Part shown: positions 2,493-20,438 of the stretch, piece by piece
Layout of the letters: each line of letters begins with the position of its first letter
Position numbering within the stretch: position 1 is the first letter of the stretch
From: a virus
UHGV virus genome: UHGV-0172001
Strand: one strand, 5' to 3'
DNA: 46,559 nt
Position numbers and translations under genes: made by a program
Notes under the pieces: generated by a model
The model's input: the letters and a program-made list of their open reading frames with translations, nothing else
Database searches by the model: none
What the model was told of the DNA's origin: nothing

Positions 2493-4949
2493 TTAAAAAT
2501 CAGCCTGACTCGGGATCAGTTTTTGCCAGATAGCTGAAACGTATTTTGCCTGGTAACGGGCGTCATCAAGTGCATTATGGCGCTCACCTTCGAATGGAAT
2601 AGCCGTTCTGGCATCGAAGTCTATGGCTTTCCCCAGCTCAACGATTGTGCGTACATCGCGATCGTTGTAGTAGCTCCACGGGCAGGGGATCCCCTGCCGT
2701 TCGTATGAACGGCGTAAAATCACGTTGTTGAAGTTGGCTTCCTTCCCCCAGATCTGAACAAAAAATTCACCGGAGTTTTCGTCGATAAATTCCCGCAATT
2801 GCAGCAGTGCATCATCTAACGGGATTTCATCGGTCATAATGGCAGATTGCGCTTCGCGTGATTGTTTACACCAGTACTTTATTGCGCCCCGGTCGATGAC
2901 TCCGCCAGCAGTTTCCAGATCGATGGTCTTGCTAAATTCCGGCCCCATATCTCCGGTTTGCGGATCGTAAAATATTGCACCTATTGAGATAATCGGGGCA
3001 TCGGGACTTGTGCCCATAGTTTTAAGGACGATCATCAAGTGGTGCCACACCCTGCTGGTGGATGTGCTTTCATGATGACCGTTCACCTTAACTGAGTGAT
3101 TTGTCGCCTCGCCAGTTTTATTATCGCTATCGTGATGCTGATTGCTGCCAGGGTTCTCCTTGTGTGGATGTTCAGCGTCTTCCATTTCCTTCGGATCATT
3201 TTCCTGAACTTCAACCTGATTCTCTTCATCGAATGTTTCCTGGTATGTTGCGTCGCCCATCACCGCGCCACAATCAGGGCAGTTGCCGCCACCGCTCTGA
3301 CCGCAGGCGGTGCAGACTTTTTCCAGTTCCTGTTGCGCTACTGGCTCGGATTGTTTCGTTTCTGGCTCGTTTTGTTGCGCATTTCGGCTGTTTTGTTCCG
3401 CTTTCTGGTCGTTCTGTTCCGATTCTTGCTGGTTCTGGTTTACAGAATCGCGGGTTTCAATCCCCTTCACCCATTTCGGATCATTCGGGTCGCTAATCCC
3501 TGCAACAAATTCTCCGCGAGAGGCCGCAAGCAACTTATTGGCGTCAGGCTGGCTGATATTGGATGCCTGCATAATTTTGTTTACTTCGTCAGCGGTAACT
3601 TTTACCTGATTAGCCGGATCTATCTGTGCCTGAGTATCCAGCGATTGCGTGTCCTGGCGATGTTCAGTTGTATCCGGCTCCATTGTTTCAGCCGTTGCCT
3701 GTTCATCTGCCATTGCGTCAGACGGTTGTGATTTTTCCTCATTATTTTTTTCTTCTTCTGTTTCGCGTTTAGCAGCCAGTTCGCGGTTAACTTCTTCCAG
3801 GATATCTTTTTCCGGTGTATGTCGTGCAGCAGCGAGAGTTTCCTCGGTAGGGTTCTCGTGATCAGTCTCCGTTAAATAGGCGTTGATATACCCCTGAAGG
3901 CGTCCCGGGTAATGATAAAACTCAGGGTGTGCGCTCCGGATAAGTGCAAAAATAGCGGCGCGGGAGTAATCCAGGATACCCGGGATTGCGCGAAGTGCTG
4001 CGGACCATTCTTTGAACGGACTTTCTTTCTTCCGGACGACTTCTTTTGCGCGACGATAAACGCTGCCCGGAATTTCATAAATATTAAAATCCATCGGAAG
4101 TGTGGCCGCTGCTATCTCCACATCCAGCGTATCGAAGGTGTGTACTAAATTCGGATTGCGATCGGTTTTGTTCCCTCCACCGGCATTAGCACCGGAAGCC
4201 GTGCGGGTGATGCGTGAAACACGATTTCCTCTCATCCACTCTTTTGTCAGCAGACCGCGATCGGTGTAGTCAGCGTCCAGATATGCTTCGAAAAAAGCAG
4301 TCATTAGCCCCAGGCCTGAATTGCCAGGATTAGGGAAAACTTTGTCAGTATCACGCACCAGTTTGTGGAGATCGCGAATTTCCAGTGGATCGAGCAGACT
4401 GGTTTTATGCGAAATAGCGAGGGCAGTAACAGCCGGTAGTTCTTCAGCCCGTGCAATGTGTAATGCCTGGAGTTCGTCGCGTGAAACGTGCGTTACCGGT
4501 TTTTCGCTGCCGCGTTGAGCAAGCCAGCGAATGGGCAGTTCCTGACCGGAAACCGGCAGGAGCATGTTCTCCTCAATCTCAGCCATGTCTTCGCCGTTGA
4601 CGTTGGTATTGTCAGTGCTGGCTGGTTTATCCTGAACAGAGGGCGAGGGCGCGATAAGTACCATTGTGATACCATCTTCCCCGCCTTTTTCGTATCGGTT
4701 GCAGAATTTGGTATCAAACACGCCTTCCGGAGGAAGGTCATTCACAACGGGTAAATGGACGCGAACAGGTTTTTTAAAATCCTCTTCGTCAAATCCAGCA
4801 TCGTCCATTGCGACAACACCGCGTGATATTGCAACCGATAATTTTTTTGCTGTGCGCCAGTAAAAACCGCCTTTAATCCCAAGGCGTTTTCTGACTTTGT
4901 CATTTTTTGCTTCGTAATATAGTGCAATTTCTTCTTTATCAGCGCTCAT
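2493..4949 (-). CDS. RecE-N-terminal-region-like protein with a C-terminal DnaQ/DEDDh-type (Rv2179c-like) 3'-5' exonuclease domain (818 aa)
   Basis: Residues about 110-640 are colinear with my recollection of the Rac RecE N-terminal region ([42 protein letters not shown], Zn-ribbon [28 protein letters not shown]). The last ~190 aa instead carry [25 protein letters not shown] and HNALDDA, which are DEDDh motifs. Confidence 0.8.
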
Positions 4950-5026: not shown

Positions 5027-5230
5027 TTACGGTGCTGTTTTAAGTCCTGCCGGGACTTCGTTATTATCCATGCGAATAACTTTATCGACCGGATAACAGT
5101 TACCGGGAATTTTCTGTTCATCTGCGGCAGCCATGCATTCTTCCATTGAGTCACGTATATCAACAATAAGATCAAGTGGTTCGCCTGTATTAAGAAAAAC
5201 TGTCAGAACGAGTGCGTATGCTGTATTCAT
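5027..5230 (-). CDS. ydfD: YdfD-like small protein (Qin prophage lysis-associated protein homolog)
   Basis: MNTAYALVLTVFLNTGEP...EQKIPGNCYPVDKVI closely matches my recollection of E. coli YdfD. ATGA overlap with the dicB stop. Confidence 0.8.
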   Translation of the reverse strand: MNTAYALVLTVFLNTGEPLDLIVDIRDSMEECMAAADEQKIPGNCYPVDKVIRMDNNEVPAGLKTAP

Positions 5231-5415
5231 TGCCAGTATCCTTTTTGCATCAGACGTAAACGGGCCAGCATTGAAACAATGCATATTTGATTTAATAACT
5301 CCCGTTCGTGTTTTCTCTTATTAATGGCATCTTCAGTAAATGCAGGGTTACTGATACTGACACCAATTTCAAAACAACCTTCAGACGTATTAACGTTTGG
5401 TAATAACGTTTCCAT
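5227..5415 (-). CDS. dicB: Cell division inhibitor DicB (62 aa)
   Basis: METLLPNVNTSEGCFEIGVSISNPAFTEDAINKRKHERELLNQICIVSMLARLRLM is near-identical to K-12 DicB as I recall it. Confidence 0.9.
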   Translation of the reverse strand: METLLPNVNTSEGCFEIGVSISNPAFTEDAINKRKHERELLNQICIVSMLARLRLMQKGYWQ

Positions 5416-5596: not shown

Positions 5597-5653
5597 AAAA
5601 AGGGCGGACATCAGCCAGCAATGAAACTGATGCCGCCAAAAGGTAATCAACAT
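5597..5653 (-). ncRNA. dicF: DicF-like sRNA with intrinsic terminator
   Basis: The minus strand reads ..TTTTGGCGGCATCAGTTTCATTGCTGGCTGATGTCCGCCCTTTTT. K-12 DicF as recalled reads TTTGGCGGTATCAGTTTTACTCCGTGACTGCTCTGCCGCCCTTTTT. Same position immediately upstream of dicB. The 5' end is approximate. Confidence 0.7.
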
Positions 5654-5984
5654 GGGTTGTTGCAGCGGGGTTGTCACTTAAGCGTATGGTCAGCCTGACA
5701 ACCTGGTGCATTTTCTGGAGCAATGGAGGAAACCCCAGCCATACTTACCGCCGCGCCATTTCGCGGATTGCCACAACCGGAAGCGCACAATCGAAGAAAT
5801 CTAACGACAAGCCCTCTAAGGAAAAGACACCTCCGCCGTGCGCTTTCGCGTTATGCCCTGAGTTTTCAGGGATATATCCTTTCAGTAAACTGCCAGTGCC
5901 GGATTCTTATCCGTGTCCGGCGCACGACAACACGCTGTCACGTGTGGTCTCCATTCTCAACCAGTAACCTCAATGGAGGATAAA

Positions 5985-6194
5985 ATGCCAAACAAGCCAA
6001 TACATCCGCTTATTGAAAAACAGATTGAATGCCTGGTTAATCAACTCAGGCAATCAGGGTTATTAAAAACTCATTCAGAGCTAGGACTCACAGAATCGGC
6101 ATTCGACGATAAATTAAATAATGCGCTTTATAATGGCATCATTGATTACAATCGTGGTGCTGGTCGTCGTGGCCCTGCTGGTACAGCTTTGTAA
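5985..6194 (+). CDS. Hypothetical protein (69 aa), opposite in orientation to the PL operon
   Basis: GGAGGA RBS 6 nt before ATG 5985. Polar, helical-looking sequence (MPNKPIHPLIEKQIECLVNQLRQSGLL...). Its stop abuts the stop of the convergent 216-aa gene with no spacer. Confidence 0.5.
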   Translation: MPNKPIHPLIEKQIECLVNQLRQSGLLKTHSELGLTESAFDDKLNNALYNGIIDYNRGAGRRGPAGTAL

Positions 6195-6845
6195 TTACCA
6201 GTTAATCCATAGCGGATAGTGTTCAGCATAAATATAGCTATACACATCCAGGTTGTATTTGCGGTCTGTCCTTAGCAGGTCGCAAATACACGCCGCAGCT
6301 TCCAGGGCGGAAGCTTTGTTGCTGAATAACCATGTAGCAACATTCCAGCGATTATCTTTATCCCACTCTTTTGCGAGAGCTGACACCACGAAGGAGCCGT
6401 TGGTGTTGCCATCAAATACTTCCGTTTCCAGATTTTTAAGTAATGCCTGGTGAATTTTTGCCAGGTATTCAGTCGGAATTTCGCCACGGATTCGGATAAG
6501 GTTGTCATAAACAAACATGTTTCCCGCATATGGCGATTTTTCTTCCTTGTTTTTTAAACCAGCATCATGAGCAAACTGATCAATTTCTTCTTCCGTTGGT
6601 TTCGTATTGATGTTTTGCGCTGTCGTTTCTGCAATTTTCTTTGCCGAATTCTCTTTGTAGTCATTGTTCGGGAACGAGTAAGAATACAGACCGACAAAAG
6701 AATTGCGGACATTATTTGATAAATTTCTGATGAACACTTTATCTACTAATATCATTGGGTTCTGCGCCAGTTGCGAGCGAATCACATCAGCGGCCATTTC
6801 CTGTATTGATATTGGTAAATCTTCAAATTCCATCGTCAACCTCAT
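6195..6845 (-). CDS. Hypothetical protein (216 aa), AT-rich orphan in the PL operon
   Basis: Long ORF whose start is translationally coupled (TGATG) to the upstream ydfA-like gene. No motif recognised. Visibly lower GC than its neighbours. Confidence 0.6.
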   Translation of the reverse strand: MRLTMEFEDLPISIQEMAADVIRSQLAQNPMILVDKVFIRNLSNNVRNSFVGLYSYSFPNNDYKENSAKKIAETTAQNINTKPTEEEIDQFAHDAGLKNKEEKSPYAGNMFVYDNLIRIRGEIPTEYLAKIHQALLKNLETEVFDGNTNGSFVVSALAKEWDKDNRWNVATWLFSNKASALEAAACICDLLRTDRKYNLDVYSYIYAEHYPLWINW

Positions 6846-7070: not shown

Positions 7071-7112
7071 ATGATACTATTCAAAGTAGATAAGTCAACA
7101 CAAAAAGTAGAA
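7071..7112 (-). promoter_or_regulatory. PL-like early-left promoter with two TCTACTTT operator motifs
   Basis: Minus strand: TTGACT - 16 nt - TATCAT. TCTACTTT sits in the spacer and a second copy sits just upstream of the -35. The same 8-mer occurs in the PR spacer. Confidence 0.55.
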
Positions 7113-7193: not shown

Positions 7194-7679
7194 TCACTCG
7201 GAAGGAGGGGGGCAGGCGTATTCCTTGTAGAAATCGTAAAGCTTCTTGAGTCTCATCTCAAAAGCTAGGAGCATGTTCTTGGCTTCAACGGGGGGGAACT
7301 CTCGATACGTTCGTATCAGTCGTTTTTCATCCTCACTCAACTCGGCGAACTCACCACTACAGCTGGTGTCGGATTCTTGTGTTGTAAATGCTCCCCCTGT
7401 CGGTTCACTTCCTTTTTCCACCAGTTGACCATATTCCAGCCATGCGGGCTCGACCCCCAGGAACTCCGCTATTCGCTCAAGTTTTTCGTCTCGCGGTTTA
7501 GCGGTGCCCAGGGTATAGCGCCGCGCCATTTCGTATGTAACACCCGTGGACAGGCTTAAATCCCTGATGGATACATTTTTTTTGTCCATCTCAGACTTAA
7601 GCCTTGTCGCGAATGCGTGATGTTTATGTGTGCTTTCTATCATATGTGGAAGGTTAAAGCAGTTACCGTGTTTCGTCAT
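7194..7679 (-). CDS. DicA-like HTH_XRE prophage repressor (CI functional analog, no S24 peptidase domain)
   Basis: HTH segment VSIRDLSLSTGVTYEMARRYTLG. The C-terminal LSEDEKRLIRTYREFPPVEAKNMLLAFEMRLKKL resembles the DicA C-terminus. Divergent from the cro-like gene. The start ATG 7679 is preferred to the track TTG 7700, which lies inside the PR -35. Confidence 0.75.
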   Translation of the reverse strand: MTKHGNCFNLPHMIESTHKHHAFATRLKSEMDKKNVSIRDLSLSTGVTYEMARRYTLGTAKPRDEKLERIAEFLGVEPAWLEYGQLVEKGSEPTGGAFTTQESDTSCSGEFAELSEDEKRLIRTYREFPPVEAKNMLLAFEMRLKKLYDFYKEYACPPPSE

Positions 7680-7722
7680 TTCTATTTTGTGTAGTTGCAA
7701 TTTCTACTTTTCGTAGTATTAT
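7680..7722 (+). promoter_or_regulatory. PR-like early-right promoter and operator region
   Basis: TTGCAA (7695-7700) - 16 nt - TATTAT (7717-7722). The spacer contains TCTACTTT and the dyad CTAC-N5-GTAG. Confidence 0.55.
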
Positions 7723-13229: not shown

Positions 13230-13449
13230 AAGGAAACAAAACAGAAACAACAATTGCCGTTACCTGTTGTTACCATGGCAAGTAAACGTATCTCAGGCGA
13301 GCGCATTGCGCCGTTCTGACGCAGATAAATTAGCCTGGATAGATGGTGCTGGCAATAAAAAATAGCGTTTTCTTATCGGTGTCGGTAAGATTGCTGCGGG
13401 TGCTTGAGGCTGTCTGCCTCGGGCATGCCACTGTAAGGCAGACAGAGAA

Positions 13450-13530
13450 AAGCCCCAGTTAACATTACGCGTCTTGCAGGACGCTTAACATTAATCTGAG
13501 GCCCAATCTATGCCACACAAACATAGGTTA
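13450..13530 (-). ncRNA. sok: Sok-like antisense RNA (position approximate)
   Basis: Inferred from hok/sok architecture: the antisense RNA covers the hok mRNA leader around the mok start. I could not define its promoter or ends. Confidence 0.3.
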
Positions 13531-13716
13531 GCCTCTTACGGACCGAAAGGTCAAGGAGAAGCAGGCTATGAAGCAGCAAAAGGCGATGTTAATCGCCCTG
13601 ATCGTCATCTGTTTAACCGTCATAGTGACGGCACTGGTAACGAGGAAAGACCTCTGCGAGGTACGAATCCGAACCGGCCAGACGGAGGTTGCTGTCTTCG
13701 TAGACTACGAATCTGA
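13510..13716 (+). CDS. mok: Mok-like overlapping leader reading frame
   Basis: The ORF overlaps hok in another frame, starting in the conserved leader (..TAGCCTCTTACGG..CAAGGAGAAGCAGGCTATGAA), as in R1 parB. Confidence 0.5.
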   Translation: MPHKHRLASYGPKGQGEAGYEAAKGDVNRPDRHLFNRHSDGTGNEERPLRGTNPNRPDGGCCLRRLRI

Positions 13717-20284: not shown

Positions 20285-20360
<76 letters not shown>

Positions 20361-20363
20361 TAT

Positions 20364-20438
<75 letters not shown>

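Follow-up and report, generated by a model that had tools for sequence, protein, structure and literature searches.

DicF is among the oldest known bacterial small RNAs and acts on cell division, metabolism, and the virulence of enterohemorrhagic Escherichia coli (EHEC). In E. coli K-12, 340 nucleotides (nt) separate the end of ydfC from dicF in the Qin prophage, and this DicF leader has hitherto been treated as a passive untranslated region. The 3′ end of DicF is formed by an intrinsic terminator or by RNase III (PMC5069750, PMC9438474). In HK022, a lambdoid phage that lacks N, a cis-acting structured RNA called put is present in the early operon, upstream of terminators (PMC9378689). Here, we analyzed UHGV virus genome UHGV-0172001, a stretch of 46,559 nt that is referred to below as the window, and in particular the part between its ydfA-like gene and its DicF-like RNA. 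This part consists of a DicF-type leader (5654–5984) and two convergent genes, here called X and Y (5985–6845). We find that the leader contains a 119-nt RNA domain, the core domain, that is predicted to fold into four helices and a pseudoknot and is common to the dicF leader and the ban leader of phage P1, and that X and Y are one allele of a variable gene cassette. Compared with the papers and RNA families that were searched, the shared core domain and the cassette logic of the slot occupied by X and Y are new.

The window is an E. coli–type lambdoid prophage of the Qin/dicBF kind, and the region under study is the promoter-proximal part of its early-left (PL) operon. Along the minus strand, the order is repressor, terminator, PL, the ydfA-like gene, a 216-codon open reading frame (ORF) containing X, an ORF-free stretch, a DicF-like stem-loop, an STnc100-like spacer, dicB, DUF1482/ydfD, and a RecE-like exonuclease (Table 1). 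The annotation of near-identical RefSeq E. coli loci agrees with this gene order, K-12 Qin has the same frame, and each of the features that mark the dicBF type was found: a helix-turn-helix (HTH) repressor, ydfA (DUF1391), a long untranslated region with dicF, dicB, and ydfD (DUF1482). The DicF-like element itself is where DicF would be sought, as a terminator stem-loop in the untranslated region that leads from the promoter-proximal small genes to dicB, in a dicA/dicC-type immunity region. By sequence, the DicF family (Rfam RF00039) matches 5602–5652 with 34.1 bits (E 3.7e-05), which is below its gathering score of 48, and a scan at the gathering threshold gave no match. Since dicB, recE, and a 372-amino acid (aa) ORF at 1075–2193, which we take from its position only to be the integrase, lie downstream of the DicF terminator, their expression needs passage of that terminator.

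When the leader was compared with the K-12 spacer between ydfC and dicF, the mean column identity was 87%, and all of the minus-strand hairpins listed in an earlier reading of the window, made from its letters alone (hereafter, the sequence-only reading), were present and conserved in K-12. Based on this comparison, 5654–5984 is the conserved untranslated leader of the DicF precursor that is known from K-12. The sequence-only reading had stated that the layout differs from that of Qin. This holds for the genes upstream of the leader, which are ydfB and ydfC in K-12 and X and Y in the window, but not for the leader, which in both cases is homologous sequence with the same hairpins directly 5′ of the DicF stem-loop terminator and which differs in the loop of hairpin B and in the DicF loop and seed. 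Likewise, the contrast that had been drawn between an AT-rich gene and a GC-rich leader is correct in relative terms (GC of 0.39–0.47 for the gene pair versus ∼0.50–0.53 for the leader) but not in an absolute sense. In agreement with the claimed lack of a credible ORF in the leader, the two long plus-strand ORFs within 5654–5984 (98 and 86 aa) have no significant match in Pfam or PHROG. Folding of the minus-strand leader was better than that of shuffled sequences (z = −2.8), with 0 of 100 shuffles as good.

Within the leader, covariation supports, for the segment 5659–5777, a predicted minus-strand fold of four helices and a pseudoknot (Table 1). Among 38 distinct sequences, 96.4% of the pair cells contained standard pairs, compared with 29–52% in controls in which the partners were slid by 1–3 columns, and nine pairs had changed on both sides, compared with 3.0 ± 1.2 in shuffles (0/500), in an alignment whose sequences are closely related and whose first 19-mer anchor forced invariance on part of hairpin A and on the 5′ strand of the pseudoknot. 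The double changes include GGC/GCC to GGU/ACC in the outer helix, GUUGUCA/UGACAAC to GUUGCCA/UGGCAAC (P1) or GGUAACCA/UGGUUACC (Izhakiella) in hairpin C, and GUAUGG:CCAUAC to GCAUGG:CCAUGC in the pseudoknot, and a second scan, anchored elsewhere, added a CCGCA/UGCGG double change in hairpin A. Hairpin B is formed by at least eight different stems. An independent RNAalifold consensus gave the same four helices, with double changes in 10 of 32 pairs; it also offers, around hairpin B, a GGU/ACC helix that is in part incompatible with the pseudoknot, and the P1 variant favors the pseudoknot. G-U pairs are frequent in the core, and therefore the folding strand is the one with the sense of the PL transcript.

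With a covariance model derived from the core alignment, the window was found to contain a single credible copy, which scored 120 bits. When a further copy was sought in the PR operon, the only match (18 bits), rich in mismatches and located inside a 187-aa ORF, was rejected as spurious. No Rfam match was obtained for the core at E ≤ 10 in a 351-nt search, or for the leader (5640–5990) at gathering or permissive thresholds. The core domain is thus absent from Rfam release 15, and a description of it was not found in the literature that could be reached.

In DNA searches, no part of the leader was shared as widely as its 3′ third, which occurs in many temperate coliphages. This piece is present in phages P1 and P7, where it carries the GenBank label “dicF-like region” and lies just downstream of the C1-controlled ban promoters, and in a phage listed for Actinobacillus, where it is directly 3′ of a dicA-like gene. 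A 19-mer scan of genome and virus collections gave ∼90 distinct variants, including ones from Erwinia, Izhakiella, Trabulsiella, and Citrobacter prophages. In almost every variant examined, a stem-loop with a U tract is found within ∼15–60 nt 3′ of the core. This terminator is mostly a DicF-like hairpin with a covarying stem; P1 has an unrelated hairpin, GCCCAUCUUCGGGUGGGCG-U7, instead. As for the distance from the promoter, in P1 ∼24 nt lie between the predicted start of the ban transcript (from the C1-controlled Pban) and the core, in Ayreon and cdtI the annotated PL promoter is ∼300 nt upstream of the core, and in the window ∼1.3 kb separates PL from the core.

The P1 ban leader resembles the leader of the window in that it matches the covariance model with 86 bits and shows compensatory changes in hairpin C as well as in the pseudoknot, has an intrinsic terminator 3′ of the core, and is downstream of a repressor-controlled early promoter. 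It differs in having no module U (the upstream part of the leader; Table 1) and no DicF-type seed or stem, in its outer helix, and in its non-lambdoid genome context.

HK022 put may be the closest functional analogue of the core domain. In architecture the two differ, since put consists of two stem-loops in ∼70 nt and has related copies in the PL operon as well as in the PR operon, whereas the core is 119 nt with four helices and a pseudoknot and occurs only once, on the PL side. The core covariance model had no match in the HK022 immunity region (our loci L006 and L007), and, with this result and the different architecture, homology of the core to put was rejected. The only sequence common to the core locus and HK022, the 9-mer GCGCGGCGG, was treated as probable chance.

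The antitermination system of lambda and P22 is like the window in that module U has boxB-like hairpins (UCCCUGAAAACUCAGGG and GCGAAAGC) that precede the first terminator. It is unlike the window in that the first of these module U hairpins closes a tetraloop, whereas boxB is a pentaloop, and in that the window has no N-like gene at the N position. In place of an arginine-rich N, the first PL gene is DUF1391/ydfA, and no N gene is present (in the window) or annotated (in Ayreon and cdtI) at this position of their operons; no boxA was identified in the window, in which no systematic search for one was made. In these features, the window does not match an N/nut system. The antitermination of mEp021 is a different, N-like system.

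Between ydfA and the dicF leader lies a hypervariable two-gene cassette, and the region 5985–6845 is one of its alleles. When loci with ydfA and the leader in common are compared, the PL-sense gene in the slot has a constant N-terminal module (∼55 aa) followed by at least eight different C-termini, and the anti-PL strand contains at least eight unrelated small genes (57–94 aa), including members of phrog_4274, 4987, 18692, 10348, 10133, and 8894. These data agree with the accessory-cargo slot that the sequence-only reading had suspected, and K-12 ydfB and ydfC are another filling of it. In the loci examined, Y-slot genes of at least eight families start 200–207 nt from the core domain and share a 5′ region composed of module U, an ACACG..CGTGT hairpin, and a CTCCATT(16 nt)AATGGAG repeat. 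The same stem that pairs with the Shine-Dalgarno sequence, its loops varied, precedes unrelated cargo genes elsewhere, and the cargo 5′ region also exists in another sequence version (CTCCT...AGGAG) of unchanged architecture. In the ACACG/CGTGT hairpin, the stem is retained while the loop is inverted among alleles (TGACAG versus CTGTCA). The 3′ ends of convergent genes of the X/Y type abut or overlap by 12–44 nt; in the window, as had been noted, the two stops abut (TAATTA at 6192–6197).

The genes of the window are not orphans, as had been thought, since X belongs to phrog_2151 and Y to phrog_4274, and the pair is present in ∼594–600 of 5426 complete E. coli genomes. By individual search, Y had a match in 597 of these genomes, the X C-terminal domain in 576, and both together (at least 80% covered) in 594, so that the pair occurs in ∼11% of complete E. 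coli genomes, with at most four copies per genome. The homologues of X (129) and Y (35) are confined to Escherichia and Salmonella. In all nine fetched loci that had either the X C-terminal domain or Y, the two were found together. X and Y are thus adjacent and co-inherited, as is the case for toxin-antitoxin or effector-immunity pairs. Because of this co-inheritance, the shared N-terminal module with swappable C-termini, and the convergent layout, the X/Y cassette may, by analogy, be an effector/inhibitor pair. It would share with polymorphic toxin and colicin cassettes a constant N-module, swappable C-domains, and a small cassette-specific gene that faces a damage-inducible transcript. The layout also resembles that of pore-forming colicins, in which the immunity gene has the opposite orientation. 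Roughly one sequenced E. coli strain in nine carries this uncharacterized pair, and the slot is a defined hotspot in which to seek induction-phase effectors and their partners.

Both frames of the sequence-only reading exist (6195–6845, minus strand, 216 codons; 5985–6194, plus strand, 69 codons), but the proposed coupling of X to ydfA through an ATGA overlap was not supported. The true start of X is most likely the second ATG at 6833, judged from the lengths of its homologues (mostly 204–214 aa, commonest 212) and their N-terminal MEFKDLP, from the phrog_2151 profile alignment (E 3e-99), which begins at residue 5, and from a GAGG 7 nt upstream of this ATG. X would therefore begin 11 nt past the ydfA stop. 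The N-terminus of X also matches phrog_1363, 6937, and 9419. In a profile search of 1.8 billion representatives, residues 1 to ∼55 formed an N-terminal module that also heads many different small proteins, and the C-terminal domain (∼100–212) was rare, with few relatives, one of them with an HTH domain. The name “Ybl81” is used in some records of X homologues, and it was not found in the literature searched. When translated sequences were compared by reading, K-12 YdfB and YdfC had no evident similarity to X and Y.

The reading that we favor, tentatively and with somewhat less than even confidence, combines a cis-acting RNA domain that sets the outcome at the DicF terminator with an X/Y effector-inhibitor cassette. 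The core domain would act in cis on the nascent PL transcript and would set whether transcription stops, with release of a DicF precursor, or reads through into dicB, the recombination genes, and int/xis. The domain thus probably controls events at the DicF terminator. X would be made only once PL is derepressed. Y would be expressed weakly, from its own strand, as long as PL stays repressed, with its translation limited by a hairpin that sequesters its ribosome-binding site, and would be silenced upon induction by PL transcription antisense through it; that PL transcription runs antisense through Y had been stated before and follows from the geometry, with the PL-like promoter at 7098–7071 (minus strand). 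Y would most plausibly neutralize or modulate X. A conserved folded domain by the DicF terminator that the P1 ban leader has as well points to an unrecognized control step, one that would decide the amounts of DicF, DicB, and recombination and excision functions in phages without N. A broader version of this proposal seems doubtful to us, if possible. In it, the 119-nt domain would represent a cis-acting transcription-control RNA of a new class, either an antiterminator that needs no protein or an attenuator that senses a ligand, with which N-less lambdoid prophages and P1 choose between release of a DicF-type small RNA and early-gene read-through. The X/Y cassettes would be polymorphic modules of effector and inhibitor, swapped through recombination between two conserved stretches, the X N-terminal coding region and the leader.

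Several observations count against the favored reading, and they bear on each half of it. For the RNA domain, no antiterminator pairing of the outer-helix 3′ strand or the junctions with the terminator arms was consistent across lineages when variants were inspected by eye, which weakens a simple attenuator or riboswitch-type model. Pairing of the DicF seed with hairpin C, checked by eye in the same way, was not consistent across lineages either. The absence of a conserved, mutually exclusive antiterminator pairing is also a difficulty for the idea that the core is a ligand-sensing, riboswitch-like attenuator in which a host metabolite or ion stabilizes the fold and shifts the adjacent termination. 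Such an element would account for the multi-helix junction, the pseudoknot, the invariant unpaired nucleotides, and the intrinsic terminator directly 3′, but the core has no Rfam relative and the downstream genes suggest no metabolic logic for a ligand, and we consider this explanation quite unlikely.

A further point against transcriptional control by the domain is that DicF is cut from a leader-bearing polycistronic transcript, with its 5′ end made by RNase E (PMC5069750, PMC9438474). This finding, together with the position of the core, which in nearly every locus ends ∼7–35 nt before the DicF-like stem-loop, would suit equally well a core that is a processing or stability module of the DicF precursor, presenting an AU-rich linker to RNase E (and RNase III) and having no effect on transcription. 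P1, however, has the core and a terminator but no recognizable DicF seed, and a 119-nt pseudoknotted fold with invariant junction nucleotides would appear to exceed the needs of known RNase E guide structures; a role restricted to processing is a serious alternative that we hold to be less probable than the favored reading. The P1 arrangement, a compact, C1-controlled unit in which ∼190 nt contain the promoter, the domain, and the terminator, would in turn fit a stand-alone, trans-acting noncoding RNA, such as a decoy or sponge for a host factor, that consists of the core and terminator and is released at the DicF-type terminator. Against this, the core of Qin-type prophages is more than 1 kb from the promoter, within a polycistronic RNA, and no partner is known, and we consider a trans-acting role quite unlikely.

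For the cassette half of the favored reading, the co-inheritance of X and Y is explicable by their adjacency alone. X C-termini and Y genes are for the most part paired one-to-one, with one X C-terminus that occurs with two different Y genes; in this respect, and in having no family match, the X/Y pair is unlike polymorphic toxin cassettes. For X, AF2 gave a poor model (pLDDT 54), and fold and sequence searches with X and Y gave nothing usable: Pfam, NCBIfam, PADLOC, and PDB-sequence searches were without significant match for either protein. A consensus scan found no plus-strand promoter upstream of Y, and the candidate TTTTCA-17-TAAACT at ∼5866–5894 matches the consensus at just 8 of 12 positions. 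Weak BFVD fold matches of X (YsxB-like and cysteine-protease-like, E ≥ 0.015) were not used. For Y, AF2 predicts two helices that form a hairpin, followed by a basic tail (pLDDT 75), and its PDB fold matches were discarded as meaningless for a helical hairpin.

The empty promoter scan, and a ratio of synonymous to non-synonymous codon differences in Y of ∼1:1, could mean that Y is not a real gene and that its open frame and conservation are a by-product of constraint on the antisense PL transcript. In nine of nine loci, however, the Y frame is intact at ∼20% DNA divergence while all five other frames contain stops, and third codon positions are twice as variable as the others (variable columns per codon position, 11/11/22). 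Furthermore, the strong ribosome-binding site of Y is conserved among the compared loci, other alleles have unrelated ORFs at exactly the start position of Y, and the family is recognized by RefSeq and PHROGs. From these comparisons, Y looks like a real gene, and we regard the by-product explanation as very improbable.

If Y is a gene, it might instead be a lysogeny-expressed exclusion or defense gene that is opposed by the lytic PL transcript, with X as an unrelated early gene, as the sequence-only reading had envisaged. Y does face PL, the slot is hypervariable like other accessory (“moron”) and defense hotspots, and one alternative allele encodes, on the same strand, a 148-aa protein with two transmembrane helices. 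Y itself, in contrast, is a soluble 69-aa helical hairpin without an effector-like feature, has no predicted promoter, and has its Shine-Dalgarno sequence sequestered in a hairpin. In PADLOC-DB 2.0, no significant match was found for X, Y, or the alternative cargo, with marginal values for YdfA versus AbiEi (E 0.016) and for one alternative cargo protein versus BrxA (E 0.014). We therefore judge a defense role for Y unlikely.

The 10-mer CAATGGAGGA occurs exactly twice in the window, as had been reported, where 0.13 occurrences are expected and 0 of 100 shuffles gave two or more. The two copies were not, as proposed, conserved anti-Shine-Dalgarno elements of the form UCCUCCAUUG in the minus-strand RNA: the second copy is the antisense of the Y ribosome-binding site, in which GGAGGA does precede the 69-aa ATG, and the first is one allele of a variable loop. 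The hairpin B allele with the first copy is absent from K-12 and most relatives. A link between this allele and Y was considered and rejected, since the allele occurs with other cargo or none and is missing in some loci with Y. The repeat thus exceeds chance within the window, yet it is allele-specific and not a conserved element.

Table 1. Features of the PL operon region in the window (positions are those of the whole 46,559-nt stretch)
Feature	Position	Strand	Remarks
Core structured RNA domain, 119 nt	5659–5777	−	Predicted four helices and pseudoknot
Core outer helix			GUUGUGGC / GCUGCAAC
Core hairpin A			CCGCG / CGCGG
Core hairpin B			Variable length and sequence; window allele has first 10-mer copy in loop
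Core hairpin C			GGUUGUCA / UGACAACC, 19-nt loop
Core pseudoknot			Junction GUAUGG : loop CCAUAC
Module U, upstream leader module	5778–5927	−	Hairpins CCGGA..UCCGG, CCCUGA-AAAC-UCAGGG, and GCGAAAGC; long-range helix GCGCACGG/UUGUGCGC around variable insert
Divergent DicF-like small RNA and intrinsic terminator	5602–5652	−	Stem 5607–5634, then U tract (terminator scan)
Hairpin ACACG-CTGTCA-CGTGT	5930–5945	unassigned	Between module U and the ribosome-binding-site hairpin of Y
Inverted repeat CTCCATT(16 nt)AATGGAG	5949–5978	unassigned	Pairs most of the Shine-Dalgarno sequence of Y
First copy of CAATGGAGGA	5721–5730	+	Hairpin B loop, allele-specific
Second copy of CAATGGAGGA	5971–5980	+	Ribosome-binding site of Y; also arm of Shine-Dalgarno-sequestering hairpin
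Gene Y, 69 aa (phrog_4274)	5985–6194	+	Convergent with X; phrog_4274 E 5e-42; RefSeq hypothetical protein
Gene X, 212 aa (“Ybl81,” phrog_2151)	6195–6833	−	Start most likely at 6833; ORF open back to 6845 (216 codons)
ydfA-like gene, DUF1391, 50 aa	6845–6997	−	First in operon; Pfam PF07151 E 2.1e-26; phrog_751; placed as K-12 ydfA
PL-like early-left promoter	7071–7098	−	TTGACT-16-TATCAT, 10/12 consensus matches; position is counterpart of K-12 Qin dicB-operon promoter
HTH repressor gene	7194–7700	−	Upstream of PL-like promoter; own terminator in between
dicB	5227–5415	−	Gene list and K-12 synteny

Module U is conserved with the K-12 Qin spacer and is found without the core domain in some Shiga toxin (Stx) phages. 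A compensatory CUCUGA/UCAGAG variant of one of its hairpins is present in two loci (L039 and L104). The resemblance to lambda/P22 boxB concerns UCCCUGAAAACUCAGGG (5849–5864) and GCGAAAGC (∼5838–5848), both minus-strand hairpins of module U. In eight other loci (L013, L045, L051, L123, L024, L037, L082, and L033), module U is replaced by a conserved motif, CCACCUCGCCUGACGUGGUUAAAAGCAGGCACACAAC, that is like an H-type pseudoknot, and upstream of this motif there are direct repeats, TTGTTGTTGGGGAWAT, that may be a different promoter or operator. Just upstream of the core, L036 (Erwinia), L037 (Izhakiella), and L082 have two hairpins that resemble tRNA T arms, GGCAGGUUCAAUUCCUGCC and GGUCCGUUCAAUUCGGAC.

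Across loci, the DicF-like hairpin keeps a GGCGG/CCGCC base, while its loops and 5′ seed regions are diverse, which suggests different targets. In phage pPE4 (L005, ∼3115–3300), the 3′ strand of the outer helix and the DicF-like stem-loop are tandemly duplicated downstream of the core.

RefSeq annotates X as a partial pseudogene without its N-terminus in L001 (3301–3816) and L002 (3298–3813). By tblastn, all 212 codons of X align in a single frame in both loci, and the pseudogene annotation may be over-conservative. About 100 nt beyond the stop of Y, within the coding sequence of X, there is a plus-strand, terminator-like hairpin with a weak T tract (AGCTTCC-AGGGC-GGAAGCT, 6297–6315) that could end the Y transcript.

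Among the alternative cassettes, L061 and L123 have a 148-aa protein with two predicted transmembrane helices on the anti-PL strand in place of the small Y, without a Pfam or PADLOC match. In L118 (113–548), a 51-aa PL-sense gene is convergent with a gene for a 94-aa protein, with a 4-nt overlap. This 94-aa Y-slot protein reaches the Pfam threshold for GhoS (PF11080; 21.2 versus 21 bits), a match that does not concern Y of the window.

Other features of the prophage were also observed. The C-terminus of YdfA contains GARRWLARN. On the PR side, a sok antitoxin RNA was identified at 13398–13570 (plus strand; 109 bits in Rfam, gathering score 59), which indicates a hok/sok-type module. Two adjoining tRNA genes are present within the prophage at 20285–20357 and 20364–20435 (plus strand; 74 and 66 bits, respectively).

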